This document shows positions 1 through 16,373 of a DNA stretch of 64,000 nt, piece by piece. Every line of letters starts with the position of its first letter. Positions within the stretch are counted from its first letter, which is position 1. Source of the DNA: Candidatus Magasanikiibacteriota bacterium. GTDB lineage: Bacteria; Patescibacteriota; Patescibacteriia; Magasanikbacterales; GWA2-37-8. The stretch spans positions 4,250 through 68,249 of the forward strand of contig JACOYB010000004.1 in the NCBI GenBank assembly GCA_016182085.1, written 5' to 3'. A model generated the notes under the pieces. That model was not told where the DNA came from, searched no databases, and was given only the letters and a program-made list of their open reading frames with translations. A program made the position numbers and the translations under genes.

Positions 1-22
1 ATTGGGGATAAGCCGGCTTGCC

Positions 23-47
23 AATAATACCCCCCTGGGGTATTATT
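23..47. promoter_or_regulatory. Perfect palindrome AATAATACCCC-cct-GGGGTATTATT (11-bp arms) immediately upstream of the csoR start; candidate CsoR autoregulatory operator
   Basis: Seen directly: reverse complement of 37-47 equals 23-33. G/C-tract palindromes of the TACCC..GGGTA type are the known operator class for CsoR-family repressors. Confidence 0.5.
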
Positions 48-55
48 ATATTTGT

Positions 56-328
56 ATGAAACCAATCCTAAAAAATAAACTGCTTAAACGCCTCAAAATT
101 ATTGAGGGGCAAATTCGCGGTTTGCAGGCTATGTTGGAAAATGGCACCTATTGCGTGGATGTTATTACCCAAGCCAGCGCCGTAAAAAAAGCCGTTTCCA
201 GTTTTGAGGATGCTTTGCTCGAAAGCCACTTATCTACCTGTGTGATAAATCAAATAAAATCCGGCCAGCACGCCAAAGCCGTTAATGAAGTAATGAAGGT
301 TTACAAATTGTCTAAAAAAGACAATTAA
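56..328 (+). CDS. csoR: CsoR/RcnR-family (DUF156) metal-sensing transcriptional repressor
   Basis: ~90 aa; the ..KKLLKRLKIIEGQIRGLQAMLENGTYCVDVITQASAV.. helix with the conserved Cys is typical of copper-sensitive operon repressors. Start taken at ATG 56 rather than the TTG at 2 so the operator stays upstream. Confidence 0.75.
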   Translation: MKPILKNKLLKRLKIIEGQIRGLQAMLENGTYCVDVITQASAVKKAVSSFEDALLESHLSTCVINQIKSGQHAKAVNEVMKVYKLSKKDN

Positions 329-342
329 GTTTTTATAGAATT

Positions 343-792
343 ATGCGTTTACAAACATTTTTAAAATTAATTTCCGGGTTAACGGCCGGCGTGATAATGG
401 CCGTAGCCCTGCTTATTTTTATTTGTCCCGGAGTTTTTATGTCTGATACCATGGTATCTAGTCCCGATATGGCCACGCCGTGTCAGAGCGATGTGGGTAT
501 GGCTGTTGGCGCCGTAGATTCCAGCGGCTGCACCAGTGTTCATTTGGCCCAGGCCCAGCGTTTTATTGGCAGCTTAGGCGGTGAAATGAGTTTGTTGTTA
601 GGAGCACTGCTTACTGTCACAGTTATTTATTTTATATCTCGGGCTGAATTTTTGAACCGGACACGCGCCGCCTTTGTCCGCTATAAATATTATTACCGGT
701 TATACTTTGCGTCCATTCGTTTACAATGCCAAAAAAAGACGATGGCTTGGCTGGCGCTGCTCAAAAATTACGAAACCGCTTCACTCGCTTAA
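343..792 (+). CDS. Hypothetical small membrane protein with Cys/Met-containing loop, in copper operon
   Basis: Two predicted TM segments; no recognisable family. Confidence 0.4.
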   Translation: MRLQTFLKLISGLTAGVIMAVALLIFICPGVFMSDTMVSSPDMATPCQSDVGMAVGAVDSSGCTSVHLAQAQRFIGSLGGEMSLLLGALLTVTVIYFISRAEFLNRTRAAFVRYKYYYRLYFASIRLQCQKKTMAWLALLKNYETASLA

Positions 793-891
793 GTTTTTGC
801 TAGCTTGAAAGGTTGGTAGCGTATTTAGATAGCGAAACTATATGGTGGAGTGATTTTTAATTTTATTTTTCTCTTAAAATTAGTTTATTAT

Positions 892-2214
892 ATGAACAAA
901 AAAACAATTCCTATTCGCGGCATGCACTGCGCTTCTTGCGAAATACTTGTGGGCGATGAATTAAAAAAAATCGCCGGGCTTAGCAGTGTTTATGTCAGCC
1001 AAAAAAGGGCTTTGGCGATAGTGAAATACCCGGAGGCAGCCCAGATAAATGATAATGATATTATTAAAGCCGTTCAAGAAGCCGGCTACGAAGTCGGACA
1101 GAAGGAAAAATTACCATGGATTTCTCGCAACGCCGCCGATTACAAAGATTTGGCGCGCGCTGCCGGAATTTTTTTGGTAATTTATTTGCTGGTCAGATGG
1201 TTTAATTTGTTTGATTTGGGTTTTAACACTCAAAGTTCCGGCGTAGCCGTGGCGCTGCTAGTCGGGCTGGTGGCCGGGGTATCAACTTGTATGGCGTTAA
1301 TTGGCGGTTTGGTGCTCAGTCTGTCGGCGCGGCATGCCGAACAGCACCCGGAAGCCACAACCTTGCAAAAATTTCGTCCGCATATCTATTTTAACATTGG
1401 TCGAATCTTAGGGTTTGCTGTTTTGGGCGGTTTAATCGGTCTTATCGGTCAAGCCTTCAAACCATCCAACAACTTGCTTGGACTTCTAACCGTGCTAATT
1501 GGCGGGGTAATGATATTCTTTGGTTTGAAGTTGATAGAAATTTTTCCGGCCTTACGCGACAAAAGCATCACTTTGCCATCGGGTATTGCCCGGTTTTTTG
1601 GATTAAAGAAAGAAGTAAAAGAATATAGCCACAAGGGCGCAATGGTAATGGGAGGGCTGACATTTTTCTTGCCTTGCGGTTTTACTCAAGCGATGCAGCT
1701 CTATGCGGTCTCTACCGGCAGTTTTTGGCAAGGCGCCGCAATTATGGGGCTGTTTGCTGTTGGCACCGCGCCCGGACTTCTTGGTATTGGTGGATTAACC
1801 TCGGTATTTAAAGGACGCAAGGCGCGCATATTTTTTATGACCGCCGGACTGACGGTAATTCTTTTGGGCTGGGTAAATATTGCCAATGGCAGCCGGCTAT
1901 TTGGCGCTCGCGTTGACAGTAAATCAGTTCCTGTAGTTACAGATCAAAACGCGCAAGAAGTGCGGATGACTCAAGGACGCACCGGTTACTCCCCAAATAT
2001 ATTTACCGTTAAAAAAGGCCAGCCGGTGAAATGGATAGTAAAATCAGAGACTTCTTTGTCCTGTGCGGCATATTTGGTAATGCCCAAATACGGCATCAGT
2101 AAAGCGCTTCAATCGGGAGAAAATATTATTAATTTTACACCCACCCAAGTTGGCGAAATTCCGTTCTCTTGTTCCATGGGGATGTATCGCGGAAAGTTTG
2201 TTGTGGTTGAATAA
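892..2214 (+). CDS. Fusion protein: N-terminal HMA (GMHCASC) domain, polytopic permease domain (DsbD_2/TauE-like, conserved Cys in TM helices), C-terminal cupredoxin_1-like domain
   Basis: MHCASCE heavy-metal-associated motif; ~8 hydrophobic helices with STCMAL and LPCGFTQ motifs; C-terminal ..KGQPVKWIVKSETSLSCAAY...FSCSMGMYRGKFVV resembles the cupredoxin-like copper-binding fold. Start at ATG 892. Confidence 0.65.
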   Translation: MNKKTIPIRGMHCASCEILVGDELKKIAGLSSVYVSQKRALAIVKYPEAAQINDNDIIKAVQEAGYEVGQKEKLPWISRNAADYKDLARAAGIFLVIYLLVRWFNLFDLGFNTQSSGVAVALLVGLVAGVSTCMALIGGLVLSLSARHAEQHPEATTLQKFRPHIYFNIGRILGFAVLGGLIGLIGQAFKPSNNLLGLLTVLIGGVMIFFGLKLIEIFPALRDKSITLPSGIARFFGLKKEVKEYSHKGAMVMGGLTFFLPCGFTQAMQLYAVSTGSFWQGAAIMGLFAVGTAPGLLGIGGLTSVFKGRKARIFFMTAGLTVILLGWVNIANGSRLFGARVDSKSVPVVTDQNAQEVRMTQGRTGYSPNIFTVKKGQPVKWIVKSETSLSCAAYLVMPKYGISKALQSGENIINFTPTQVGEIPFSCSMGMYRGKFVVVE

Positions 2215-2228
2215 TTAGAAATGATTAT

Positions 2229-2441
2229 ATGCCAAACCAAAAATTTGTTATTACTAATTTAACTTGCGCGGCTTGCGTAAAATTGTCCACCCTGGCGCTT
2301 AAAAAAATTCCGGGTGTAAGCGCAGCGGCAGTTGATCTTGCTACCGGCGCTGCCGAAATTACCGGCGACCGCGATGTGGCGTGGAAAGAAATTGAAGGAG
2401 CGCTTAAGAGCGTGGATAAAACCGCGGCTCAAATTACTTAA
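2229..2441 (+). CDS. copZ: Small HMA-domain metallochaperone (CopZ-like, CxxC = TCAAC)
   Basis: 70 aa; betaalphabetabetaalphabeta HMA pattern with CAAC. Confidence 0.6.
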
Positions 2442-2451
2442 TTTTAATTGT

Positions 2452-5214
2452 ATGGATAAAATCTTACTCAAAATTACAGGCATGCACTGTGAGTCGTGCG
2501 AAAAAATAATCGGCATGGAGCTGTCGGAAATAGCCGGCGTCAGTAATGTTAAAATAAATTTTGCGGCCGGGTCCGGAGAATTAGAAGCCTCCACCGAAGT
2601 ATCAAATGAAGCGATTGTTCAGGCGATTGTGAAGGCCGGGAATCAGGGAGAGGTGGTAAGTCGTATTAAAGAGCAAACTTCCTCTGTTCCAAATACATTT
2701 GAGAAAAATATCGTTTCCGGCAATCAACCATTTAAAGTAAAGATTGAAGTGACTGTAGAACCGGAAGGCGCTGTTGTTGGGAGCTCGTCCGCATATATCC
2801 CTCGGCCTGCGACAGAAAAAATTTCTAATCAAACAGCCCCAGGTTCTGCCGTAAAAGAGAAAAAAGAAGAACAAGTGCAACTAGCTCTTACCGGCATGCA
2901 TTGCGCGTCGTGCGCGGGTTTGATTGAACGAGGCTTAAAAAAAGTGGCGGGTGTAAAGAGTGCTAATGTTAATTTTGCGGTTGAAAAAGCGCGGGTGGTG
3001 TTTGATAATTCAGTCGCATCGGTAGAGCAGCTTATTGGGGCGGTAGAAAAATCCGGTTACAAAGCGCGGCTGGCCGGCACCGGCAATCCCGAGGAAGAAA
3101 GATTGCAGCGAGAAAATGTTATCAAAAGATACTGGCAAAAGTTTTTCTGGGGGCTTATCCTTAGTTTGCCGATGCTGTATTTCATGCTTCTGGATTTCTT
3201 TTCGTTTCTACCCAGCAGAACATTTCTTTTGCCGTATATTGGTATCGTATCGCTTATTCTTACCATTCCCGTACAATTTATTATCGGCGCGGGATTTTAT
3301 AAAGGAATGTGGAGCAGTCTGCGAATGAAAACGTTTAACATGGATAGTTTGATTGCTATCGGTACAAGCACCGCGTTTTTCTACAGCTTGGCGCAATTTA
3401 TTAACTATGTTGCGCGTACCGGCAGCGTGGTTGGTTTAAATGGCGCGAAAATTCCCGAATTATATTTTGAAACCGCCGCTTTTTTGATTACTTTTGTTAT
3501 TCTGGGCAAGTGGCTGGAAGCAAAAACAAAAGGGCGAACATCAGATGCTATAAAAAAATTGATGGGGCTTCAGGCTAAAACCGCGCGCGTGATGAAAAAT
3601 GGCGTGGCTTTGGATGTACCCATTGAACAGGTTGTGGCCGGCGATACAATTGTCGTCCGCCCGGGTGAAAAAATTCCGGTAGATGGCGCGGTAAGCAAGG
3701 GGCAGTCCAGCGTGGATGAATCTATGATTACGGGTGAAAGTATTCCGGTGGAAAAAAATATTGGTGACATGGTGATTGGTGCGACTATAAATAAACATGG
3801 CAGCTTTGAATTTACGGCCACCAAAGTGGGAAGCGAAACTATGCTGGCGCAAATTATTCGGGTGGTTGAAGAAGCGCAAGGATCTAAAGCGCCGATTCAA
3901 GCGTTTGCCGATAAAATTTCCGCCTACTTTGTGCCAATTGTTATTGGTTTAGCGGTGCTTACATTTTTGGTTTGGTATTTTGCTCTTGGCGCCAGCCTTA
4001 CTTTCGCGTTAATGGCTTTTACTTCGGTTATCGTTATTGCTTGTCCTTGCGCTTTGGGACTAGCCACGCCAACAGCCATTATGGTTGGTACGGGCAAGGG
4101 CGCCGAACATGGCATTCTTATCAAAGGCGGTGAGCCGCTGGAAGCCGCCTGCAAAATTAAAGCCGTAGTATTTGATAAAACAGGCACACTCACCAAAGGT
4201 CAGCCGGAAGTTACTGATGTGGTAAGCGCCGGTCTGTCTGATGAAGAAGAAATAATTCGTATCACCGCCAGTCTGGAAAAACTTTCCGAGCATCCGCTCG
4301 CGGACGCGATTGTTAAATATGCTGAAGAAGAATCCGTGCCGCTTAGCGAGGTGGCCGGTTTTCGCGCTATTCCCGGTCATGGTGTTGAGGGTGTATTAAA
4401 TAGCGTTAAATATTATTTTGGTAACCGTAAATTAGTGACGGATGTGGTTGGTATTTCCACAGTTGTTCTGGAAAAAGTGGAGCGTAAAATTCGCAAACTA
4501 GAAGAGAGCGGCAAGACGGTAATGATTTTGGCTTCAACCCAAGAAATTTTGGGATTGGTAGCGGTGGCCGATACGATAAAAGAAACAACCGTAGATGCGG
4601 TGCGCGCCTTACAAGAACAACACATCGAAGTCTTTATGATTACCGGCGATAATCGCCGCACAGCCGAAGCCATTGCTCGCCAGGCCGGAATAAAAAATGT
4701 CTTGGCGGAAGTATTGCCGGAAGACAAAGCTAATGAAGTCAAAAAATTACAGGGAACAGGTATTAAAGTGGCGATGGTGGGCGATGGAATCAACGACGCG
4801 CCCGCGCTGGCGCAAGCGGATTTGGGTATTGCCATGGGAAGCGGCACAGATGTGGCTATGGAAACGGGCGGAATTGTTATTATTAAAAATGATCTGCGTG
4901 ATGTACTTACGGCTATTAAACTGAGCCGTGAAACTATGAATAAAATTAAACAGAACATGTTTTTTGCCTTGTTCTATAATGTTATTGGTATTCCTATTGC
5001 CGCGCGCGTGTTTGTCGGTATTGGCATAGTGTTAAAACCGGAGTTGGCGGGTTTGGCCATGGCGCTTAGTTCAATATCGGTAGTCTCCAATTCTTTATTC
5101 TTGCGCGGATTCAAACCGGGCAAGCGTAACTGGCTGTCTATGGCCGCGCCGATAGTGATGGGATTACTATTTACCGCCATATTCTTTGTCTTTGCCCGGC
5201 TTAGCCGAATGTAG
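2452..5214 (+). CDS. copA: Copper-translocating P1B-type ATPase with two N-terminal HMA domains
   Basis: Two MHCxSC HMA domains; TGES actuator motif, CPC in TM6 ([12 protein letters not shown]), [16 protein letters not shown]1B signatures. Start at ATG 2452 ([16 protein letters not shown]); the upstream 2332-2451 part of the ORF overlaps copZ in another frame. Confidence 0.92.
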
Positions 5215-5277
5215 AATAATCGGAGTAGTGATACAATGTATACTAAGAAGTGTCTATAAAAGAAAGGATCTGGAAAT

Positions 5278-6390
5278 ATGAAAAAAGAAAAACAAATCAT
5301 TGAATCTTTGTTGGCCGGTACGGGAATTAAGATAAACGGAAACAATCCCTATGACCTGCAAGTACACAATGAAAATTTTTATGGCCGCTTATTGCGGTAT
5401 GGCTCATTAGGGCTCGGCGAGTCCTATATGGATGGCTGGTGGGATTGCGCCAGTCTTGATCAGTTTTTTCATAAAGTTCTGGAAGCTGATCTACACAGCC
5501 GAGTGAAAAACGATCTTGGCATCGCTCTAAAGATTGCTTTAAATTTTGTGTTGAATGTTGGCAGAAAGTCAAAAGCCTTTAAGAATGGAAGGCATTATGA
5601 TGCTGGCAATGATTTATATCGCGCGATGCTTGATAAGCGTTTAGCCTATACCTGCGGATATTGGAAAGATGCCGTTAATCTTGATGATGCGCAAGAAGCA
5701 AAACTTGATTTGGTCTGCAGAAAGATGGGCCTAAAACCCGGGCAAAAAATATTAGATATCGGTTCGGGCTGGGGGAGTTTTATGGGGTATGCGGCCGAAA
5801 AATACGGAGTAAATGCCGTTGGAGTTACTGTCTCAAAAGAACAAAAGGCGCTTGCGGATACTCTTTATAAAAATCTCCCCGTAGAAACGCGGCTGCAAGA
5901 TTATCGCGATATCAATGAAAAGTTTGACCAGGTAGTATCTTTAGGGATGTTTGAACATGTTGGATATAAGAATTATCGTACCTTTATGAAGGTCGCGCAT
6001 AGCTCTCTTAAAGACAACGGTTTATTTTTGTTGCACACTATCGGCGGCAATCATTCGGCGCGCATTACGGAGCCATGGATTGAAAAATATATTTTCCCCA
6101 ACTCCATGCTTCCCTCAATCAAGCAGATTGGCAAAGCTATTGAAGACCTATTTGTGATGGAAGATTGGCATAATTTTGGGGTTGATTATGACAAGACACT
6201 AATGGCTTGGTATAAGAATTTTGAAGATAATTGGGATAAAATAAAATCAAATTATGATGAAAGGTTTTATCGGATGTGGAAGTATTATCTTTTAGTCTCC
6301 GCCGGAAGCTTCCGAGCCAGAACAAATCAATTATGGCAGATTGTCTTGTCTAAAAAAGGGGTTCCTGGGGGGTATATATCAGTTAGGTAA
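5278..6390 (+). CDS. cfa: Cyclopropane-fatty-acyl-phospholipid synthase family SAM-dependent methyltransferase
   Basis: Full-length match to CFA synthase architecture (LDIGSGWGS SAM motif, conserved C-terminal region). Confidence 0.8.
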   Translation: MKKEKQIIESLLAGTGIKINGNNPYDLQVHNENFYGRLLRYGSLGLGESYMDGWWDCASLDQFFHKVLEADLHSRVKNDLGIALKIALNFVLNVGRKSKAFKNGRHYDAGNDLYRAMLDKRLAYTCGYWKDAVNLDDAQEAKLDLVCRKMGLKPGQKILDIGSGWGSFMGYAAEKYGVNAVGVTVSKEQKALADTLYKNLPVETRLQDYRDINEKFDQVVSLGMFEHVGYKNYRTFMKVAHSSLKDNGLFLLHTIGGNHSARITEPWIEKYIFPNSMLPSIKQIGKAIEDLFVMEDWHNFGVDYDKTLMAWYKNFEDNWDKIKSNYDERFYRMWKYYLLVSAGSFRARTNQLWQIVLSKKGVPGGYISVR

Positions 6391-6440
6391 ATGGTAAAGA
6401 TAAAAAGATTGTAAATAATTTATAGAGTATTTATTATTTT

Positions 6441-8507
6441 ATGCCAGAAAACCTTCACGGAGAGCATGCCGGCCACGATATGCAAAAGATGAGCCATATG
6501 GATCACGAAGCGGCCATGACCAATCCGCAAATGGCCAAGCAGATGGAAGCGGATATGCGCCGCCGCTTCTGGGTTTCTTTGTTTCTTTCTGTGCCGATTT
6601 TTTTGTACTCACCGGTCGGCGTTAATATATTTAAATTTAATTTGCCAACACCACTTCCCGTAAATTGGCTGCTTTTTATTCTCACTACCCCGATAGTTTT
6701 TTGGACAGGTTCTATTTTTATCACTGGTACATACTATTCTCTTAAAAGTAGAAAACTCAACATGTCGGTGCTTATTGCCACCGGCGTATTGGCCGCGTAT
6801 TTATTTAGCGTTCTGCTTACTTTTACTATTGGCGGCGAAACATTCTACGAAGCCGCGGCGCTACTGGTAACATTTGTATTATTTGGCCATTGGATGGAGA
6901 TGAAATCACGGCGCGGTACGTCTGATGCGTTGCGAGCCTTGTTTGATTTGGTGCCGCCAAAAGCCAATGTTGTTCGCGGAGGCAAAGAAATAAACATCAC
7001 CAGCGCGGAAATAGTCCAGGGCGACATTGTCGTGCTTCGGCCCGGCGACAAAGTGCCGGTGGATGGTGAAATCACCGAAGGCGAAACTTCTATTGATGAA
7101 TCACTTATTACCGGAGAATCTATTCCAGTTACTAAAACTATCGGAGCAAAAGTGGTGGGTGGATCGGTGAATCTTACCGGTATCGCGCAATTTAAAGCTA
7201 CAAAGGTTGGGTCGGAAACGGTGTTGGCCCAGATTATAAAAATGGTAGAGACTGCGCAGAACTCCAAAGCTCCCGGTCAGCGCATAGCCGACAAAGCCGC
7301 CGGCTGGCTAGTTATTCTTGCTATTGGCTCGGGGCTGGCTGCGTTTTTTGGCTGGTATGTTGGCGCAGGCGTGGGTCTTTTGGCCGCTCTCACTTTTGCA
7401 GTATCAACTGTGGTGATTGCCTGTCCGGATGCTTTGGGGCTCGCCACCCCGACAGCGGTCGCTGTGGGAACCGGCATTGGCGCAAAATATAATATTTTAA
7501 TAAAAGATGCCGCTACTTTGGAAAATACATCTCGGCTAACAGCCATTGTTTTGGATAAAACCGGCACTCTTACAGAAGGAAAACCAAAAGTCACCGAGGT
7601 TGTTGTGCGATCGGGATACGATCACCACGAAGTTTTATCGCTTGCTGCCTCGGCAGAGCGAGGTTCAAATCATCCTATTAGCGCCGCTATTTTAGAAGAA
7701 GCAAAAAAGAATGGGTTGGATGCAAACGAAAAGGTAGAAAAATTTGAATCAATTGGCGGCCATGGCGTAAGGGCTGTTATAAATGGCAAAGTTATTATTG
7801 CCGGCACGGAGCGGCTTATGCAACAAAATAATATTGATCTTTCTCCGATCAAAAAAGAAATTGACCGTTTGCTTAGTACCGGTAATACCATTAGTATTGT
7901 TGCTATTGATGGGCAAGTGGCGGGTGCTATCGGGGTGGCGGACACTCTTAGGCCTTCGGCGAAAAAAACTATCTCGGCGCTCCAGTCGCTTGGGCTGGAA
8001 GTGGCGATGATTACCGGCGATCATGAACAGGTGGCAAAAGCGGTATCAGATGAACTTGGCATAAATCGCTATTTCGCACAGGTGTTGCCGGAAGACAAGG
8101 CAAAATATGTAAAAAAACTTCAGGATGAAGGCAAATTTGTGGCAATGGTCGGAGATGGAATCAATGACGCTCCGGCACTCGCGCAGTCAAATATCGGCAT
8201 TGCCATCGGCGCCGGTACGGATGTGGCGATTGAAACAGGTAATATCGTGCTTATGAAATCAGATCCGTATGATATTGTGGCCGCCCTTCGTTTGAGCAAG
8301 GCAACGGTAGTAAAAATGAAACAGAATTTATTTTGGGCGGCGATATACAACGTGCTGGCCATTCCGGTTGCGGCCGGCGTGTTTTATAACTCATTAGGTT
8401 GGTCGTTGCGTCCGGAAATCTCCGCGCTTTTAATGTCAGCATCGTCTATTATTGTCGCCACTAACGCCGTGTTGTTGAAGCGAGTTGAATCCAAATTAAA
8501 AATTTAA
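6441..8507 (+). CDS. Second heavy-metal P1B-type ATPase, CopB-like (His/Met-rich N-terminus, no HMA domain), with unusual CPD transmembrane motif
   Basis: N-terminus HGEHAGHDMQKMSHMDHEAAMTNPQMAKQMEADM; [19 protein letters not shown] present; TM6 reads ACPDALGLATP (codons TGT CCG GAT). Confidence 0.85.
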   Translation: MPENLHGEHAGHDMQKMSHMDHEAAMTNPQMAKQMEADMRRRFWVSLFLSVPIFLYSPVGVNIFKFNLPTPLPVNWLLFILTTPIVFWTGSIFITGTYYSLKSRKLNMSVLIATGVLAAYLFSVLLTFTIGGETFYEAAALLVTFVLFGHWMEMKSRRGTSDALRALFDLVPPKANVVRGGKEINITSAEIVQGDIVVLRPGDKVPVDGEITEGETSIDESLITGESIPVTKTIGAKVVGGSVNLTGIAQFKATKVGSETVLAQIIKMVETAQNSKAPGQRIADKAAGWLVILAIGSGLAAFFGWYVGAGVGLLAALTFAVSTVVIACPDALGLATPTAVAVGTGIGAKYNILIKDAATLENTSRLTAIVLDKTGTLTEGKPKVTEVVVRSGYDHHEVLSLAASAERGSNHPISAAILEEAKKNGLDANEKVEKFESIGGHGVRAVINGKVIIAGTERLMQQNNIDLSPIKKEIDRLLSTGNTISIVAIDGQVAGAIGVADTLRPSAKKTISALQSLGLEVAMITGDHEQVAKAVSDELGINRYFAQVLPEDKAKYVKKLQDEGKFVAMVGDGINDAPALAQSNIGIAIGAGTDVAIETGNIVLMKSDPYDIVAALRLSKATVVKMKQNLFWAAIYNVLAIPVAAGVFYNSLGWSLRPEISALLMSASSIIVATNAVLLKRVESKLKI

Positions 8508-8543
8508 ATAATTTATAAAGGCCATTTTAGTAAATTAAAAAAT

Positions 8544-8571
8544 AATCACGATTAAGCCGTGATTGTTTTTT
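8544..8571 (+). terminator. Rho-independent terminator after the second ATPase
   Basis: aatcacg-attaagc-cgtgatt hairpin followed by TTTTTT. Confidence 0.55.
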
Positions 8572-8624
8572 AATCCACCTGCAGTCGCTCTACCACCGGT
8601 TGTGAAGGGGTTGAACATTGGCGG

Positions 8625-8653
8625 TTGACAAAAACCGGATTTTATACTATTAT
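8625..8653 (+). promoter_or_regulatory. Sigma70-like promoter TTGACA-17-TATTAT driving the GC-rich ORF at 8817
   Basis: Consensus -35 at 8625-8630, 17-nt spacer, -10 at 8648-8653. Confidence 0.5.
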
Positions 8654-8700
8654 ACTTTGTTCTTTAATAATTTTTTCCAACTTTCTTTTGGCTAATCATT

Positions 8701-8728
8701 GTCATTCCCGCCATAGCGGGAATCCAGT
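8701..8728. repeat. Half-copy of interspersed palindromic repeat (TGTCATTCCCGC-catA-GCGGGAATCCAG)
   Basis: Same 28-nt hairpin unit as at 18108-18135, 27723-27750 and 31963-31990. Confidence 0.8.
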
Positions 8729-8816
8729 GGGCCGGAAGAAGGCTGGAAAAAATCAGCGCTTCCTCTTTGCCACGTCGGCGAGGAGTGAGCTTTCTCAAAA
8801 GAGGAGGCAAAGGACA

Positions 8817-9305
8817 ATGGTAATGGCAATCGACTTCTTGCTTTCGGCCGCCCACCTCAAGCGTGAACTTGGCGAGGAGCTGTTCGAGGCTTTGGTCAGC
8901 TCGAACAACACTGCGGCAGTTCGCAAATTCGCGGAGGAGCTCGTCAAGTTGGGACCCCCCACTGAGATGACCCTCGGCGATCGCGCCTACGACATTCTCG
9001 GCATCCTCAAGGGAGACGAGAAGTCGGTCATCGGCCATACGATGGTCAGCCGCGCCAAGGAGCAGAACGCCCACAACGGGAAGGAAGAGCGAGAGCACGT
9101 CCTAAAGTATCAGGACCAGATTCCCGCCGCCCTCCGCGGCAAGGTCGTCCTCGTCTTCACCGACGACAGGCACCCCGACGACCCCGAGGGCGTCTACTGC
9201 GTTGGCTGGGACGGCAAGCGCTGGGTCAAGGACTGGCGCTGGCTCGACTTTGACGACTGGCGCGGCCGCTATCGGGTTCTCCGTCGCAAGTCCCCGCAGC
9301 CCTAG
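8817..9305 (+). CDS. Hypothetical protein, GC-rich (about 62% GC, strong GC3 bias), probably horizontally acquired
   Basis: Strong SD GAGGAGG 9 nt before ATG 8817; codon usage (CTC/GTC/GGC/CGC) unlike neighbouring genes; no recognisable domain (C-terminal W/D/R-rich). Confidence 0.6.
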   Translation: MVMAIDFLLSAAHLKRELGEELFEALVSSNNTAAVRKFAEELVKLGPPTEMTLGDRAYDILGILKGDEKSVIGHTMVSRAKEQNAHNGKEEREHVLKYQDQIPAALRGKVVLVFTDDRHPDDPEGVYCVGWDGKRWVKDWRWLDFDDWRGRYRVLRRKSPQP

Positions 9306-9388
9306 AATTCTTAGTCGCTCAGAACTTTCGGGTTCTGTGCTCACTTGATCCCTTCGGCTCGCCTGCCGTCAGGCAGGCTCGCAAAAAT

Positions 9389-9426
9389 GCCCACCCTGGG
9401 AAACTAGGGTGGGCAAATTATTTTTT
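9389..9426 (+). terminator. Rho-independent terminator
   Basis: gcccaccctgg-gaaact-agggtgggc hairpin then aaattatttttt; preceded by a second hairpin gcctgcc-gtca-ggcaggc. Confidence 0.6.
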
Positions 9427-9525
9427 AGGGTATCCTATGGCAAATCAACAGGTCGGCTTATTGATTTAATCGCCCGTTTCGTATATATTAGCTAAAGTTC
9501 ATATATATAAATTAAGCTAAACTCT

Positions 9526-10326
9526 GTGTTTTTAGATATTATTAAAGCAATTGTCTTGGGTTTGGTAGAGGGCATTACCGAGTTTTTGCCTATCTCTTCT
9601 ACCGGCCATCTTATTATATTAAACAATTGGTTGAGTTTTAGCCCGGATCTAACGGTAATGTTTGATATAGTGATTCAGTTCGGAGCTATTTTGGCGGTAG
9701 TGGTTGTGTTTTGGAAACGATTATGGCCGTTTGGCAAAGACCAGATTGAGAGGCTTGGGATTTTTAATCTTTGGCGCAAAACCATAGTGGGAGTATTACC
9801 GGCCATTGTTTTGGGCGCGGCGCTAGGCAGTATAATTGAAGAAAAACTATTTAATCCGTTGGTAGTGGCCGCGGCTTTGGTGGCGGGCGGTATTATTTTA
9901 ATTTTAGTGGAAAGAAGACAGGTTACCGCTAATATATTATCTGCCAAAGATATTTCTTATCGCACCGCTTTTTTAATCGGTCTATTTCAATCTTTGGCCA
10001 TGATTCCGGGCACTTCGCGGGCCGCGGCCACAATTATTGGCGCCATGCTTTTGGGGGCAACGCGAGTAGTGGCGGTAGAATTTTCTTTTTTCCTAGCTAT
10101 TCCTACCATGCTAGCCGCTTCGGCATACAGTTTACTCAAATATGATTTAGTAATTAGTGTAAATGATTTTATAATTTTAGGTATTGGTTTTGTCACAGCA
10201 TTTTTTACCGCCTTGGCAGTAATTAAATTTTTATTAAATTATATCCAAAATAATAATTTTAAGGTTTTTGGATATTATCGCATTGGGTTGGGTATTTTGG
10301 TGTTACTATTGTTTATAATATTATAA
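9526..10326 (+). CDS. uppP: Undecaprenyl-diphosphatase (BacA/UppP)
   Basis: Full-length match to UppP (GITEFLPISSTGHLII, conserved C-terminal PGTSRAAATIIG). GTG start assumed. Confidence 0.85.
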   Translation: MFLDIIKAIVLGLVEGITEFLPISSTGHLIILNNWLSFSPDLTVMFDIVIQFGAILAVVVVFWKRLWPFGKDQIERLGIFNLWRKTIVGVLPAIVLGAALGSIIEEKLFNPLVVAAALVAGGIILILVERRQVTANILSAKDISYRTAFLIGLFQSLAMIPGTSRAAATIIGAMLLGATRVVAVEFSFFLAIPTMLAASAYSLLKYDLVISVNDFIILGIGFVTAFFTALAVIKFLLNYIQNNNFKVFGYYRIGLGILVLLLFIIL

Positions 10327-10328
10327 TT

Positions 10329-11264
10329 ATGTCTAATTACGAAATACTTTTGTATTATAAATATACACACATCTCCGACCCGGATGAATTTTGTGATAAG
10401 CAAAAACTGCTTTGCGAAAAATTAGGATTAAAGGGCAGGATAATTATTACCGAAGAAGGCATAAATGGAACGGTAGAAGGCTTAAAAGAAAATACTCAAA
10501 AATATATTGATGAAACTGTTAAAGATTCTAGGTTTGCCGACATGAATTTTAAAAGAAGCGAAGGCACAGGCAATGCTTTTCCTAAACTATCGGTAAAATC
10601 ACGCACCGAAATTGTGAGCGCGCATTTGGGAGAAGATGATATTAACCCAAATGTTATCACGGGTAAATATTTGCCGGCCGAAGAATTACACAAATGGATT
10701 CATAGCGATAAAGAATTTTATATTGTGGACATGCGCAACGACTACGAACATTCAGTTGGATTTTTTAAGGATTCAATTTTGCCGCCGCTCAAACATTTCC
10801 GTGATTTGCCAAAAATTTTGCCAGGCCTGGCGCACTTAAAGGATAAAACAGTGGTGACAGTTTGTACTGGCGGCGTGCGCTGTGAAAAAGCTTCGGGATT
10901 TCTGGTAAAACACGGATTTAAAGATGTGTATCAATTGCACAATGGTATTGTGAGTTATATGGAAAAATACCCAAATGAAGATTTTTTGGGCAAGCTTTAT
11001 GTTTTTGACGGACGCGTAACGATGGCTTTTAATAACCCCGACAAACCGGCAGAAGTGGTAGGTAAGTGCAAAAAATGCGGAAGTTCAAGCGAAAATTTTG
11101 TAAATTGCATGCAGCCAAGCTGCCACGATCATTTTATCTGTTGTGAAAATTGTTTGAGCAGGAAAAAAGAGGCGTTCTGTAATTGGAAATGCGCTTTTGT
11201 TAAAAAATTACGGGATAATTTCTCAATTTTTAAACACAGTGTAAAACATAAAGTTAGCTTATAA
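10329..11264 (+). CDS. trhO: Rhodanese-domain tRNA uridine(34) hydroxylase (UPF0176/YceA/TrhO family) with Cys-rich C-terminal extension
   Basis: CTGGVRCEKASGFL rhodanese active-site loop and overall UPF0176 layout. Confidence 0.8.
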   Translation: MSNYEILLYYKYTHISDPDEFCDKQKLLCEKLGLKGRIIITEEGINGTVEGLKENTQKYIDETVKDSRFADMNFKRSEGTGNAFPKLSVKSRTEIVSAHLGEDDINPNVITGKYLPAEELHKWIHSDKEFYIVDMRNDYEHSVGFFKDSILPPLKHFRDLPKILPGLAHLKDKTVVTVCTGGVRCEKASGFLVKHGFKDVYQLHNGIVSYMEKYPNEDFLGKLYVFDGRVTMAFNNPDKPAEVVGKCKKCGSSSENFVNCMQPSCHDHFICCENCLSRKKEAFCNWKCAFVKKLRDNFSIFKHSVKHKVSL

Positions 11265-11276
11265 ATATAAGGCGTT

Positions 11277-11615
11277 ATGAAAATAGTTTCCGGAGTGGTG
11301 GTAGAAGGCCGTAAAAAAGGCAGAGAGCTGGGATTCCCCACAGCCAATATTATTTTGTTAGAAAAAATGGAAGGTGGAATTTATGCCGGTAAGACTATTA
11401 TTTCCGATAAAGAATACATTGGCGCGATTTTTGTTTATCCGGGCGGCGATTTATTTGAAGTGCATCTTTTGGATTTCGATGGAGATCTTTATGGACAGGC
11501 GTTGAAAGTAGAAGTGGGGGAAAAGATAAGAGATTCCAAACAATTTGATAATGCGGAAGATTTAAAAGCGCAGATAGCTGCAGATATTGCTCATATTAAA
11601 AATCTAAGTGTTTAA
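11277..11615 (+). CDS. Stand-alone riboflavin kinase (flavokinase domain)
   Basis: GRKKGRELGFPTANI motif typical of the RibF C-terminal kinase domain; 112 aa. Confidence 0.75.
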   Translation: MKIVSGVVVEGRKKGRELGFPTANIILLEKMEGGIYAGKTIISDKEYIGAIFVYPGGDLFEVHLLDFDGDLYGQALKVEVGEKIRDSKQFDNAEDLKAQIAADIAHIKNLSV

Positions 11616-11618
11616 ATT

Positions 11619-12203
11619 ATGTTTACCGGCATTATAAAGAAAACTTCGGTTGTAAAAGATATATACAAGAAAAACGAAAACTTGTTTGCTTCTATTTCCA
11701 AAGAAAAAGATTGGCCGGTAGAGTTGGGGCAGAGTATTGCTATAAACGGCGTATGTTCCACCGTAAAAAGCTTTGATAAAAATAGTTTTTTGGTGGAGTG
11801 GATGCCGGAAACGCTCAAAAAAACCAGTGTAAATAGTTTTAAAAAAGGCACGATGGTAAACTTGGAAACCAGTTTAAATTTAAGCACGATGCTGGATGGT
11901 CATATTGTGCAGGGTCACGTGGATACGGTAGGCAAGGTGGTGGAAATAAAACCAAAAAAAGATTCAAAGGTTATAAAAATAAAACTGCCGTCCCAATTTA
12001 TGAAGTTTATTGCCGACAAAGGTTCGGTGGCAGTGGACGGTGTAAGTTTAACCGTGGTAGATACGGGTAAAGATTGGTTTACGGTATCGCTTGTTAGTTA
12101 TACGATAGAAAATACTAACTTTAAAAACACCAAAAAAGGGGATTTGGTAAATATTGAAACTGATGTGCTAGCCAAATATCTGTATAAACTGATGAAGAAG
12201 TAA
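11619..12203 (+). CDS. ribE: Riboflavin synthase alpha subunit
   Basis: MFTGII N-terminus, two lumazine-binding repeats. Confidence 0.85.
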   Translation: MFTGIIKKTSVVKDIYKKNENLFASISKEKDWPVELGQSIAINGVCSTVKSFDKNSFLVEWMPETLKKTSVNSFKKGTMVNLETSLNLSTMLDGHIVQGHVDTVGKVVEIKPKKDSKVIKIKLPSQFMKFIADKGSVAVDGVSLTVVDTGKDWFTVSLVSYTIENTNFKNTKKGDLVNIETDVLAKYLYKLMKK

Positions 12204-12207
12204 TTTT

Positions 12208-13530
12208 TTATGATTCTAAATCTTCTATATCTTCTCTATATTTATCAGCTTGCGCCATCACATTATCTCCGTAGAAGCGGTAACGAAGATTGGTACCGCC
12301 GGAGAAGTAGCGCATGGCAGCTTTCCATTCGCCGTCACGAGTGCCATCGGCGCCGTTATTTTTGAGCAGTAGTGCCGCGGCCATAAATGCGTCTCGTATA
12401 TCCCACGGGTCAGCCGGACTTTTGCCGGTTATTGCGCTGACTTTGTCTTTGTATCCCATCCAAGTAGAAGGAATAAATTGGGCTGGACCCATAGCGCCTC
12501 CCCAGCCAAGCTGGGAGCCATCCTTATTTTTCATTGGGCAAGAAACCGGAGTAACATCCGGATCACGTCCTAGTTCCTCCGTAATTTTTACAAATGGTTC
12601 TTGGTCACGCGTTGGTTTCATAATAACACGCCAGCCTTTTTCGGGCGGGTCGCCGGGGCGATTGCAGGTGCCAACATTTTTACCCAGATTTGATTCTTGG
12701 GTAAGAATGGCAAGGAGAAAAGCCGCGGATACGCCAGTTTGTCTGTCAGTGGCCTGGGCAATTTCTACCGCTTGTCCGAAAGTGATCTGCTTGCCAACGC
12801 CCAAGAGTTCATAGATACGGCTTCGGATTTCAGCGGCATGTTTTTTACTATCTTGCAAAAGGTTTTGATAAGTAAGTTCCAGTCCCTTGGTTTGTTCGAG
12901 TAGTTGATTTTGTTCCTGTAGTTTTCCGCCCAAAGCGCCCTGCTGAATCCTGGCTACATTTAACAACTTCTCGGCATCGTCTTGCTGATCCTCATAGGCA
13001 ATTTGTTGCTGGTTTAATTGTTTTTGTATTCCTTTTGCTTCCCGTACCAAATCGTTTATGGAAGCGGACAGCCGCTCATAATTTGTTGCTTCCACGAATG
13101 CTTCGCTTAGTCCGTCTTCAACCAAAATATTAAGCAAGAACATTTGTTCGTCTTTTTGTTGGAGCGTACGAAGCATTTTTGCTAGTTCTATACGCAGACC
13201 AGCGATTTTTGATTTATTGGCATCTATGGCTTTGGAAGTTTTTACTAATTTTTGTTCTAAATCTTCAATTTTTACGTTGGTAGCTTTAATTTCCAGGCGC
13301 AGCCTAGCCTCTTCGTTTCTAAGCTGTTTGATTTTATTGGCCAAAGTATTTTTCTCGCCTTTGGTAACGCTGATTTGCTTTTCTAATTCCTTAATTTGAG
13401 ATTCAATTGCCTGCAACTCATTTTCCAGCTGCTCTCGGTTGCTATCTGGGGCGGCTATGCTAATATTAGCCAAAAACAAACTAATCACTGCGAGTAGTAG
13501 TATGGATTTTTTTAACAATGCGTATTTCAT
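12208..13530 (-). CDS. Secreted protein: N-terminal signal/TM, long coiled coil, C-terminal lytic-transglycosylase (SLT)-like domain
   Basis: Heptad-rich 30-230 region; C-terminal ..AILTQESNLG.. catalytic-Glu motif of the SLT/goose-lysozyme-like fold. Confidence 0.6.
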   Translation of the reverse strand: MKYALLKKSILLLAVISLFLANISIAAPDSNREQLENELQAIESQIKELEKQISVTKGEKNTLANKIKQLRNEEARLRLEIKATNVKIEDLEQKLVKTSKAIDANKSKIAGLRIELAKMLRTLQQKDEQMFLLNILVEDGLSEAFVEATNYERLSASINDLVREAKGIQKQLNQQQIAYEDQQDDAEKLLNVARIQQGALGGKLQEQNQLLEQTKGLELTYQNLLQDSKKHAAEIRSRIYELLGVGKQITFGQAVEIAQATDRQTGVSAAFLLAILTQESNLGKNVGTCNRPGDPPEKGWRVIMKPTRDQEPFVKITEELGRDPDVTPVSCPMKNKDGSQLGWGGAMGPAQFIPSTWMGYKDKVSAITGKSPADPWDIRDAFMAAALLLKNNGADGTRDGEWKAAMRYFSGGTNLRYRFYGDNVMAQADKYREDIEDLES

Positions 13531-13742: not shown

Positions 13743-16373
13743 ATGTTCAAGCTTAAGGAAGTTCTCAGGTGGGGCGTATTGTCCCTGGTTTTTAGTTTGC
13801 TCATTGTATTTTCAGCGCGAGCGCAGACCGCAACGGATACTAGTTCTGGTTCTACCCAAACTGCTGATCAGCAGTGTGTAAGCGGTGGTGGAAAATTGTG
13901 TAACAGCTCATCCGGTTCAAGCTGGTGTTCATATTCCACCAGTCCTTGCCCGGCTTATGATTCGGCCAGTTGCGCGGCGCAAAGCGGAGAATGGTGCGCT
14001 TATTCTGGCGGTACCGGCGGTTATTGCAACAGCACTCCGGGAAATTGTCCAATAAATGATGAAGCGACTTGTACGGCAAAGAGCAGGCCTTGGTGCAAAT
14101 ATTCTTCCGGCTCCGGCTCTACGGCTAGTACTTATGGAGGGTGGTGTGGCGAGGTGGGGTATAAATGCCCGGCCTATGACCAGCCGTCTTGTACCGCTCA
14201 AGGCAGTGAATGGTGCACATCTTCGTATGGCTCAGGATGGTGCAGTACTGTTCCGGGAAGTTGTCCTATAAACGATAAGGCCACGTGTGAATCAAAAAGC
14301 CGTACTTGGTGTATAGATAGCAGCAGTTATAGCACTAGTGGCGGTTGGTGCGCCTCTACTGGCAGCAGCTGTCCGAGTACTTCCACAAGCACAACTCCTA
14401 CTCCTAGCCCTACCCCCGTTTATTCTTCTTGGCCAAGCACGGAAAGCGATTGTACTAAGTATAAAGGCGTATGGTGTGTAAGTACTTATACCGGTGGTTA
14501 TAGCATGATGTCCGGTTCTTGTATGATGGCTGGGCAAACTTGTCCTTCGGCCACTCCGGCTGGGAAAATGAGTTGTTGGGATGGAACTTACGTTGATACA
14601 TATTCCAGTTGTCCGACTACTCCCAGCGGAAAGAGCGACTGTGAAACAAAAGGATATAAATGGTGCGATTCAACTGCTGTCTCTAGCTATACTACATATA
14701 GTTCCGGCTGGTGTACGGGAAAAACTTATAATTGTCCTACTTATCCGCCGGCAGGAAAAATGTCTTGCCCGGATGGGGTTACTTTTGCCACTACTCTAAC
14801 CGAGTGTCCTAAGGCTGATGCTGGAGTAACAAGCCCCATCTCACCAACGCTAAAAACTTGCCCGGACGGATCCGTTATAGATAAATCATGGGTATGCCCG
14901 GTTGTTTTTTTGACTTGTTCAGACGGCGTAACCAAAGTTAGGAGCTTGACCGATTGTCCGATAAAAACCGAAGACAGTATTTCTACGTGTCTTAACAAGA
15001 AAGGCGTTTGGTGTTTGGACAAAGCGGGAGGGAACGGTTATTGCGCGTTACAGGGTGGATGTAAGACGGCTTTGCCAGATGAAAAAGAACCGGTTGTAGA
15101 AAAAGAAGCGCTGGATGCGAAGCAAATCAAGCTAGTAGAAACCATGAAGAAAGATTATGCGCGAAATTTGGATACCCTGGAAAAAACATTTAAACGCCTG
15201 GGAGATACGGAATCACTCGCAAAAATCACGGTTCTTAAGGAAAAATTATCTTCATTGCCAGCGGATACATCGGTTTTTGATGCCTTAGAAGCTACGAAAG
15301 ACGATATAATGACCCTGCGTGAAGTAAAGGATGATTTAATTGAGAAAAAAGGCGAGATTGAAATGTCAGAAAGAGATGTAGAGATGCAAGCAAAAGCCTT
15401 AAAACAGATGAAGAAGAACATGCTTATATTTGAAAAACAGCTTAACAAAATGAGCACCAAAGCCGCTCAACTGAAAAAGCAAGGATTTTCTTTGCCAAGC
15501 ACGCTAGATGATCTTTTAACGCAAGGAAAAGAATTAATTAAAAAAATAAAAGCCAGTACGAATTTTGAGGAAGCGCGAGATGCGGGAGAATCGCTGGCCG
15601 AATTGAGTGAAGATTTAAATTTGTGGGCTACAAACTTGGATCAATTGGCAAAAATCAGTTCGCTGCTTAGAAATATAAATGCCCAAATTACGAGAAGAGA
15701 GACGGCGCTTAAGAGTGTGCGGACAGTAGCTGCCAGATTAAAAGTTGATTTGCAGGCAAATTTAGACGAGGTCAGCGCGACACTTGCATCGGTTAGAGAA
15801 GCGTATGGACAGTTAAAAACAAAGGAATGGAACCAAGACGAACCGTTTGAATTTGTTCAGTCAGCCATCATTGATAAACTTGAGGATATGGACAATGATA
15901 TGGCTAATATCCGAGCGCTTGCCAACCTTAAAGCTTCGGTAAATAAAATCGGAGCGCAAATTAATAATTTTAATGTCAGAATTGCCCGTTTGGCAAAACA
16001 AAAGAAAGATGTGGTGGAGTTGCAAGGCTTGGTTGAGCAGCTAAAAGAAACACATGGCGAGCTAAAAGCTTTGTCCGGAGAAAAGTTAGCTAATTTGGAT
16101 GTGGAGAGTGTTATAGAAAAATTAGGCGCGGCCAGCGCGCTGATGGAAGAAATTATGGATTTGTTAAAAATTAACGCTCCCTCTCTTCTGGAGAAACAAT
16201 TAAAACAGAATTTTAAAGTTGAAAAAATAGATGTTCCGGAAGTTGAAAAACAGGTAATCCGCGCTTATAGAGTAGCCACATTTTTCCGCCGAGCTCCCGA
16301 GCAGATGGCGCAATACGCCACCGGCGTTAAGGAGGCAATAAATAGATGGAGAAATCGTTTGGCGATTGATTAG
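13743..16373 (+). CDS. Secreted protein with ~8 tandem Cys-rich modules (C-x4-5-WC-x6-14-G[WY]C-x4-7-CP) followed by ~450-aa coiled-coil region
   Basis: Signal peptide; repeats such as CAAQSGEWCAYSGGTGGYCNSTPGNCPINDEAT / CTAQGSEWCTSSYGSGWCSTVPGSCPINDKAT; C-terminal half heptad-rich; no known family. Confidence 0.6.
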   Translation: MFKLKEVLRWGVLSLVFSLLIVFSARAQTATDTSSGSTQTADQQCVSGGGKLCNSSSGSSWCSYSTSPCPAYDSASCAAQSGEWCAYSGGTGGYCNSTPGNCPINDEATCTAKSRPWCKYSSGSGSTASTYGGWCGEVGYKCPAYDQPSCTAQGSEWCTSSYGSGWCSTVPGSCPINDKATCESKSRTWCIDSSSYSTSGGWCASTGSSCPSTSTSTTPTPSPTPVYSSWPSTESDCTKYKGVWCVSTYTGGYSMMSGSCMMAGQTCPSATPAGKMSCWDGTYVDTYSSCPTTPSGKSDCETKGYKWCDSTAVSSYTTYSSGWCTGKTYNCPTYPPAGKMSCPDGVTFATTLTECPKADAGVTSPISPTLKTCPDGSVIDKSWVCPVVFLTCSDGVTKVRSLTDCPIKTEDSISTCLNKKGVWCLDKAGGNGYCALQGGCKTALPDEKEPVVEKEALDAKQIKLVETMKKDYARNLDTLEKTFKRLGDTESLAKITVLKEKLSSLPADTSVFDALEATKDDIMTLREVKDDLIEKKGEIEMSERDVEMQAKALKQMKKNMLIFEKQLNKMSTKAAQLKKQGFSLPSTLDDLLTQGKELIKKIKASTNFEEARDAGESLAELSEDLNLWATNLDQLAKISSLLRNINAQITRRETALKSVRTVAARLKVDLQANLDEVSATLASVREAYGQLKTKEWNQDEPFEFVQSAIIDKLEDMDNDMANIRALANLKASVNKIGAQINNFNVRIARLAKQKKDVVELQGLVEQLKETHGELKALSGEKLANLDVESVIEKLGAASALMEEIMDLLKINAPSLLEKQLKQNFKVEKIDVPEVEKQVIRAYRVATFFRRAPEQMAQYATGVKEAINRWRNRLAID

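Follow-up and report, generated by a model that had tools for sequence, protein, structure and literature searches.

Which ion is carried by a P1B-type ATPase whose membrane site reads Cys-Pro-Asp (CPD) where CPC or CPH is usual, and is the aspartate a genuine feature of the protein? The question is raised by a forward-strand gene at positions 6441..8507 of a 64,000-nucleotide stretch, called the window here, from a Candidatus Magasanikiibacteriota bacterium (contig JACOYB010000004.1 of assembly GCA_016182085.1, positions 4,250 to 68,249), which a first-pass annotation had described as a CopB-like pump with a non-canonical motif. The gene is intact and encodes a member of the copper-type P1B ATPases, its metal site keeps the residues of copper pumps at every mapped position but one, and it stands in a cluster with csoR and copA. 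The aspartate itself is fixed in a subfamily that is related to the CopB pumps as a sister group. We consider it probable that the protein is a copper exporter that works by the normal P1B cycle and is induced through CsoR, with Asp330 acting as a ligand of the fourth membrane helix (M4) in the place of the CopB histidine.

The pump and its metal site

The open reading frame (ORF) starts with ATG and runs uninterrupted through 688 amino acids (aa). Its translation, which contains VVIACPDALGLATP and STVVIACPDALGLATP, scores 589.3 bits against the TIGR01525 profile (cut-off 346.25) and 565.9 bits against TIGR01511 (cut-off 397), while the Zn- and Co-type P1B signatures are not its top family matches. 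An E1-E2 ATPase domain (PF00122) and a HAD hydrolase domain (PF00702) are present, and a Pfam scan of the protein returned neither an HMA domain (PF00403) nor an HMBD domain. The catalytic motifs of P-type ATPases are all intact, namely TGES (224-227), DKTGT (372-376), MITGD (523-527) and GDGINDAP (571-578), and the HP of the N-domain is found at 411-412 within SNHP (409-412). An identical protein is held by NCBI as 'copper-translocating P-type ATPase' from a Candidatus Magasanikbacteria metagenome-assembled genome (MAG), and the closest relatives are 78-90% identical over the full length. The features of the gene that bear on its function are as follows.

6441..8507, + strand: CPD-type P1B ATPase gene, 688 aa (TIGR01511 and TIGR01525 above cut-off; PF00122 and PF00702)
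6441..6566, + strand: His/Met-rich N-terminal segment, aa 1-42, with conserved H12, H19, D21-H22, M26, M35 and D38-M39
6756..6770, + strand: LNMSV, in which Asn107-Met108 corresponds to N157-M158 of Archaeoglobus fulgidus CopA, the latter being the copper entry methionine
6885..6902, + strand: GHWMEM in M2, in which Glu153 corresponds to CopA E205 and is flanked by His150 and Met154
7422..7430, + strand: CPx motif Cys328-Pro329-Asp330, codons TGT CCG GAT, in M4, the predicted sixth transmembrane helix
7554..7568, + strand: DKTGT with the phosphorylated Asp372, 43 residues past Pro329
8346..8366, + strand: YNVLAIP, the YN(X)4P motif of M5, residues 636-642 (Tyr636, Asn637)
8433..8447, + strand: MSASS, the MxxSS motif of M6, residues 665-669 (Met665, Ser668, Ser669)

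Three statements of the first-pass annotation are thereby borne out: the predicted sixth transmembrane helix, whose motif region reads IACPDALGLATP, does carry CPD; the protein is a P1B ATPase; and its N-terminus is rich in Met and His, with 8 Met and 5 His in the first 42 residues against whole-protein averages of 2.6% and 1.6%. This N-terminus also lacks an HMA domain.

Residues of the metal pathway were mapped by HMMER alignment to A. fulgidus CopA, for which roles have been assigned in a study of the E1 structure (PMC9433437). Cys328-Pro329-Asp330 aligns onto C380-P-C382, and the correspondence is given here position by position.

CopA M158: Met108, entry methionine
CopA E205: Glu153, entry region, M2
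CopA D336: Asp284, entry region, M3
CopA C380: Cys328, first CPx cysteine, M4
CopA C382: Asp330, second CPx cysteine position, M4; changed
CopA Y682 and N683: Tyr636 and Asn637, YN(X)4P, M5
CopA M711, S714 and S715: Met665, Ser668 and Ser669, MxxSS, M6

All mapped residues are kept except C382, and Asn107-Met108 is invariant in alignments of relatives. Because the remaining residues are retained, the site is best described as one of the Cu(I)/Ag(I) type in which one ligand has been exchanged. We infer that Asp330 takes part in metal binding, in which case the thiolate of Cys328 and the carboxylate of Asp330 would together match the thiolate pair of a CPC site in formal charge. An AlphaFold2 model built from 27 close homologues shows eight long helices at the expected places, but its mean predicted local distance difference test (pLDDT) score is 58.9 and falls below 50 across the membrane helices, too poor for judging site geometry or for a fold search.

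Copper context and the transported ion

The pump is the last of six genes on the same strand, which are separated by intergenic gaps of 14-117 nt and preceded by a predicted CsoR operator.

27..43, + strand: predicted CsoR box ATACCCCCCTGGGGTAT, overlapping a promoter-like site at 18..46
56..328, + strand: csoR (PF02583, 92 bits), with the x-C-H-C ligand pattern of Cu(I) sensors (YCVD ... ESHLSTC)
343..792, + strand: predicted membrane protein of 149 aa with no Pfam match, between csoR and the HMA-DsbD gene
850..2214, + strand: fusion protein of an HMA domain, a DsbD_2 membrane domain and a C-terminal cupredoxin-like domain
2332..5214, + strand: CopA-type CPC P1B-1 ATPase with two HMA domains, likely true start ATG 2452
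5278..6390, + strand: cyclopropane-fatty-acyl-phospholipid (CFA) synthase (PF02353), directly upstream of the CPD pump

The ligands of the encoded CsoR are the Cys in YCVD and the His-x3-Cys in HLSTC, and the box upstream of csoR is an exact fit to the consensus ATACCCCnnnGGGGTAT quoted for Corynebacterium glutamicum (PMC5057107). A second CsoR box directly before the pump was looked for in the window and none was found. A scan of one genome per species returned at least 559 genomes with a relative of the pump, and the counts for related loci given here cover the 80 that were retained. Within 6 kb of the pump in these loci, CsoR is encoded in 24, CopA in 10, the HMA-DsbD-cupredoxin fusion in 8 and CFA synthase in 5. 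In nine related loci csoR has a looser TACCC-N5-GGGTA box at its 5' end; a Patescibacteria MAG (L007) has such a box roughly 130 nt upstream of its CPD pump, and in Rhodococcus one stands upstream of the HMA and CopA genes that adjoin the CPD pump. On Rhodococcus and Meiothermus plasmids the pump is accompanied by a multicopper oxidase, an HMA protein, CopA, DUF305 and a metal-sensitive regulator.

As judged from sequence, copper is the substrate suggested by the conserved Cu(I)-type residues and by this CsoR-regulated context, and a working cycle can be proposed on that footing. Under copper stress, CsoR would leave its box and the cluster would be transcribed. Cytoplasmic copper, most probably as Cu(I), would then pass from the His/Met-rich N-terminus or from a chaperone to an entry site made up of Met108, His150, Glu153, Met154 and Asp284, and from there would be bound within the membrane by Cys328 and Asp330 of M4, Tyr636 and Asn637 of M5, and Met665, Ser668 and Ser669 of M6, with Asp330 occupying the ligand place held by the histidine in CopB or by the second cysteine in CopA. 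Phosphorylation of Asp372 would finally drive the switch from E1 to E2P and release the ion outside. Both copper as the substrate and its oxidation state are what we infer from these residues and neighbours, and automated annotation by the Joint Genome Institute (JGI) names relatives of the pump 'Cu2+-exporting ATPase'.

Several observations weigh against this account. Relative to Cys or His a carboxylate is the harder ligand, and Cu(I) would not be expected to pair with it. A weak promoter-like site stands immediately before the pump, whose presumed co-transcription with csoR is argued from gene spacing. The poorly modelled membrane domain does not allow the geometry of the site to be checked, and a literature search found no functional or biochemical study of any CPD pump. 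Finally, the plasmid-borne pumps of Phenylobacterium, Acidovorax and Mycolicibacterium lie among no obvious copper genes, their neighbours being an MFS transporter, PPK2, an MBL-fold hydrolase, a thymidine-phosphorylase-like protein, a phosphoribosyl pyrophosphate synthetase and a MerR-type regulator.

The alternative that survives best is that CPD shifts selectivity, so that the pump exports, in place of Cu(I), either Cu(II) or some other cation that is harder or divalent (Zn, Co, Ni, Fe or Pb), or couples transport to protons through the M4 carboxylate, alongside a CopA specific for Cu(I). The aspartate is invariant among homologues down to 45% identity, as would be expected if a carboxylate were specifically required, and the presence of a CPC-type CopA in the same cluster argues against simple redundancy; a shift of selectivity or proton coupling would make the pump non-redundant with the adjoining CopA. 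The MerR, MFS and PPK2 neighbours of some relatives and the Cu2+ transporter names can be counted on the same side. The position of the residue belongs here too. The HMMER match to SERCA1a ends at query residue 394 and chain residue 373, an offset of 21, from which we take Asp372 to be the counterpart of SERCA D351 and Asp330 that of Glu309, the cation-gating glutamate of the PEGL motif. This offset and the 43-residue spacing between Pro329 and Asp372 would put Asp330 at the PEGL glutamate position of the P2-type ATPases, a correspondence that is a positional analogy. Against a shift stand the other Cu(I)/Ag(I) signature residues, all of them kept (the entry Met, YN(X)4P and MxxSS), the failure of Zn- and Co-type signatures to give the best family matches, and a regulator with Cu(I)-type C-H-C ligands and a canonical CsoR box; the Cu2+ names, moreover, are automatic transfers. 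The CPH pumps of the sister group, formerly called Cu(II) pumps, are now themselves regarded as Cu(I) pumps (PMC10654040). We regard altered selectivity as unlikely. A further proposal, that an invariant M4 aspartate at the PEGL-glutamate place may give a chemistry distinct from that of Cu(I) pumps, whether export of Cu(II) or another divalent cation or proton-coupled copper transport, is put forward as a tentative and unlikely one. Were it true, it would account for the persistence of such a pump next to a canonical CopA in mobile resistance islands.

Fixation of the motif and spread of a probable mobile island

The motif is CPD in all 120 of the best database homologues of the window protein (78-90% identical, mostly from Patescibacteria of many classes). 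It is equally so in 120 of the 120 best homologues of a divergent member (P0124, 47% identical to the window protein), which are 45-89% identical to P0124 and include proteins of Mycobacterium, Mycolicibacterium, Deinococcus, Rubrobacter, Caldilineaceae, Calditrichia, Gemmatimonadaceae and Planctomycetaceae. All 83 fetched loci (the 80 retained from the genome scan and three plasmid loci) also carry CPD. Among the 79 of these that were matched by a codon scan the aspartate is written GAT in 45 and GAC in 34, and for the other four the motif was read from the translation; since both codons are used, it is the amino acid and not its nucleotide spelling that is conserved. When 1.84 billion cluster representatives were searched, seven CPD representatives came out on top (Roseiflexaceae, Candidatus Aquicultor and others), with CPH and CPC pumps next, at 41-48% identity. 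Among cultured bacteria, Rhodococcus, Phenylobacterium zucineum and Meiothermus taiwanensis have plasmid-borne CPD pumps with about 50% identity to the window protein, and plasmid matches at about the same identity, whose CPx motif was not read, come from Mycolicibacterium gilvum, Acidovorax, Deinococcus and Methylophaga. No mixing of CPD, CPH and CPC occurs among the 240 listed homologues and 83 loci, down to 45% identity, and the single deviation seen in the CPD clade is one SPD sequence (P0210). By these comparisons the aspartate appears as a fixed residue under purifying selection at the third CPx position, and CPD as the mark of a very large clade that extends over many phyla and the plasmids of cultured bacteria.

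The ancestry of the subfamily was examined in a tree of 39 CPD or SPD sequences, 11 CPH sequences (among them the plasmid-encoded Staphylococcus aureus CopB and Enterococcus faecium TcrB) and 48 CPC sequences (among them the CopA of the window and Klebsiella SilP), built by neighbour joining (NJ) in numpy, with support throughout given as NJ bootstraps. CPD and CPH pumps form a joint clade, apart from the CPC pumps of the CopA type, in 200 of 200 bootstraps, and had done so in 193 of 200 under earlier, thinner sampling. CPH is monophyletic in 194 of the 200 bootstraps and CPD in 104, and in the point tree each is monophyletic with respect to the other. The residues that separate CPD from CPC pumps are common to CPH pumps as well, namely His150, Met154, L290, A294, G298, P609, A640 and His22: His150 is found in 94% of CPD, 100% of CPH and 0% of CPC sequences, Met154 in 94%, 91% and 2%, and His22 of the N-terminus is 82% conserved in CPH pumps. 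The sole column that separates CPD from CPH is 330, which is D in 100% of the former and H in 100% of the latter. On this evidence the subfamily is placed as the sister group of CopB/TcrB and is not nested within CopB.

This pattern leaves little room for the idea that CPD is a neutral spelling of CPH or CPC that drifts freely. In its other residues the site matches that of CopB, GAT and CAT are one nucleotide apart, and one SPD variant does occur in the clade; against this, the three motifs are not interchanged across the homologues and loci compared, the CPH group holds together as a clade and is reciprocally monophyletic with CPD in the point tree, and both Asp codons are in use, so that it is the amino acid that is conserved. 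We hold neutral drift to be very improbable. A mistake in sequencing or assembly that turned CAT (His) or TGT (Cys) into GAT, or decay of the gene into an inactive paralogue, has in its favour the same single-base distance to CAT and the missing N-terminal HMBD that most relatives have. Against it, Asp is found throughout in independent assemblies drawn from hundreds of samples, and the window ORF is uninterrupted, with intact catalytic motifs and 78-90% full-length identity to relatives; the chance of it is negligible. Error, decay and neutral drift are thus effectively excluded.

The remaining statements of the first-pass annotation can be judged from the same data. The refuting case it had named, that GAT stands in error for the CAT of a CPH motif, does not survive the uniform Asp of 120/120, 120/120 and 83/83 sequences with both codons represented, and the rarity implied by 'non-canonical' gives way to a very large clade, spread over many phyla and plasmids, whose motif has been in print since 2017. 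Its suggestion that the site could mark a different substrate is not supported in that form, the Cu(I)-type residues and the CsoR neighbourhood favouring copper. Its label 'CopB-like' is right in view of the NJ clade and the shared residues, and is put more exactly as a sister subfamily of CopB. Where it had allowed that CPD might be a common neutral variant, the motif is indeed common, but it is not a freely interchanging one, because the 240 homologues and 83 loci show no mixing and synonymous change occurs in the Asp codon.

Pump identity remains at 63-87% between very distant lineages, which include many classes of the candidate phyla radiation (CPR), a Woesearchaeota archaeon, and MAGs of Gammaproteobacteria, Bdellovibrionales and Acidimicrobiia. 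The guanine-plus-cytosine (GC) fraction is 0.41-0.52 over positions 1..10000 of the window, against 0.37-0.40 in windows spanning 9501..12500. Because the GC of the cluster is raised and the pump is so similar across such distances, the cluster is probably part of a horizontally acquired, mobile island. Pumps 68-75% identical occur in a Woesearchaeota locus (L057), two Gammaproteobacteria MAGs (L034 and L067), Bdellovibrionales (L066) and Acidimicrobiia (L068); their presence in a DPANN archaeon and in unrelated phyla would imply either recent transfer between domains and phyla or mis-binning of contigs. The CPD clade also marks a mobile copper-resistance island that crosses very deep taxonomic boundaries and enters even the small genomes of Patescibacteria; besides these, islands of this kind have reached DPANN archaea and plasmids in cultured bacteria.

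Other observations concern the island itself. The ORF listed for CopA begins at TTG 2332, 40 codons ahead of an ATG at 2452 that directly precedes the first HMA domain and is the more plausible start. The HMA-DsbD_2-cupredoxin fusion lies beside CopA in 8 of the 80 related loci, and a CFA synthase gene stands directly upstream of the CPD pump in five (L009, L013, L036, L073 and L078), which suggests that membrane-lipid modification travels with the metal island. After the pump, an ORF of 226 aa at 8625..9305 matches no family and shows the local GC maximum (0.52), and past it lies a strong terminator-like hairpin with a 12-bp stem (9388..9415). GC goes down to about 0.37 at the bacA gene (9526..), a drop that probably marks the right edge of the island. 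Further along the window, an ORF at 13743..16373 encodes 876 aa with no Pfam match.

As to the N-terminus, the HMBD (YTCPMHPEV...PGxCPxCGM, PF19335) that the window pump lacks is present in 51 of 78 related loci and in most of the listed homologues, and is kept in four of the five relatives that have cfa upstream as in the window. The window pump starts approximately where relatives read '...GMDLIPE' (6441..6470; alignment columns 1-110).

Several neighbours recur in the related loci. A family of about 326 aa with the motif PCCNNSTHFPDCNHGMAM and no Pfam match is found near the CPD pump in 28 of the 80 (for example at 323..1300 of L076), and others are a 154-aa membrane protein with SCCTHYL (24 loci), a 162-aa protein with GPGPGGHH (23 loci) and DUF1573 (17 loci), besides DsbD-like, thioredoxin-like, SHOCT and DUF302 proteins; most of the recurrent families returned nothing in Pfam scans. 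The CPD pump comes after a small DUF2933-like protein and an ICMT-like methyltransferase in L007 (4489..5438), the Patescibacteria MAG, which was deposited as Candidatus Saccharibacteria, and likewise on the Phenylobacterium plasmid (L082, 5757..6634), and these two neighbours look like a conserved accessory pair; DUF2933 also comes after SilP in Klebsiella (L086, 2733..2930). The plasmids of Phenylobacterium (L082, 9115..15571) and Acidovorax (L090, 1669..11953) share a conserved module that includes the pump together with an MFS transporter, an MBL-fold hydrolase, a thymidine-phosphorylase-family protein and a ribose-phosphate pyrophosphokinase, with PPK2 in Acidovorax.

Comparison with known systems

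Literature searches for CPD with P1B or ATPase terms, or for Cys-Pro-Asp, led to a single paper that mentions the motif, in which a 'novel CPD motif' was described in three rhizobial pumps, those of Xanthobacter autotrophicus, of Nitrobacter hamburgensis and of a Bradyrhizobium sp., and placed beside the CPH pumps as subtype 'VIc / P1B-3b' (Cubillas et al., 2017; PMC5552934). The CueA protein of Bradyrhizobium liaoningense was considered as a possible characterised CPD pump and ruled out, its motif being CPC. The rhizobial P1B-3b pumps agree with the window pump in CPD, in YN(X)4P and in an M6 motif of the MSxSS type; they differ from it in being longer, in an N-terminus described as His-poor, and in reading MSGSS (PMC5552934), whereas the window pump has 688 aa, a His/Met-rich N-terminus and MSASS, and belongs to a tight branch found mainly among Patescibacteria. 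The window gene is thus an additional member of an already published subtype. It was already annotated as a copper ATPase and adds no new principle by itself; what gives it value is the subfamily, which amounts to a natural experiment on the CPx ligand. A few membrane residues serve to read the ion selectivity of P1B pumps, and one reclassification, from Cu(II) to Cu(I), has already been needed for the CopB branch. A large natural clade with a carboxylate in place of His or Cys offers a ready test of what the third CPx residue contributes to selectivity for metal and valence.

The closest characterised group is formed by the CopB/TcrB pumps with CPH, formerly P1B-3 (CopB of S. aureus and A. 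fulgidus, TcrB of E. faecium), which have in common with the window pump the His/Met-rich N-terminus without HMA, the YN(X)4P motif and the M-S-x-S-S/T motif of M6. They differ in the His at the third CPx position, where the pump has Asp330, and in MSxST in M6, where the window pump has MSASS and other CPD members MSAST, MSGSS or MSVSS. Most close relatives of the pump also carry a short Cys-rich HMBD (PF19335), which is not seen to be needed by the sampled CopB proteins, and the CPH pumps are merely 38-46% identical to the window pump.

The best matches among solved structures are those of CopA, the P1B-1 pump with CPC (7r0g and 3j08 from A. fulgidus, 3rfu from Legionella pneumophila; E ~1e-160), which agrees with the window pump in domain order, in the Met, Glu and Asp of the entry site, and in YN(X)4P and MxxSS. 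It differs in the second Cys of CPC, replaced by Asp in the pump, in one or more HMA/CxxC domains where the pump has none, and in an M2 that reads G-K/R-x-L-E-A instead of GHWMEM; identity is 41-48%, and the pump falls outside the CPC group in the trees. At a greater remove, the PEGL motif of P2-type ATPases such as SERCA and Na,K-ATPase likewise places a carboxylate directly after the M4 proline, 42 residues before the phosphorylated Asp, in enzymes that differ from the pump in sequence family, in their other ligands and in their substrates.

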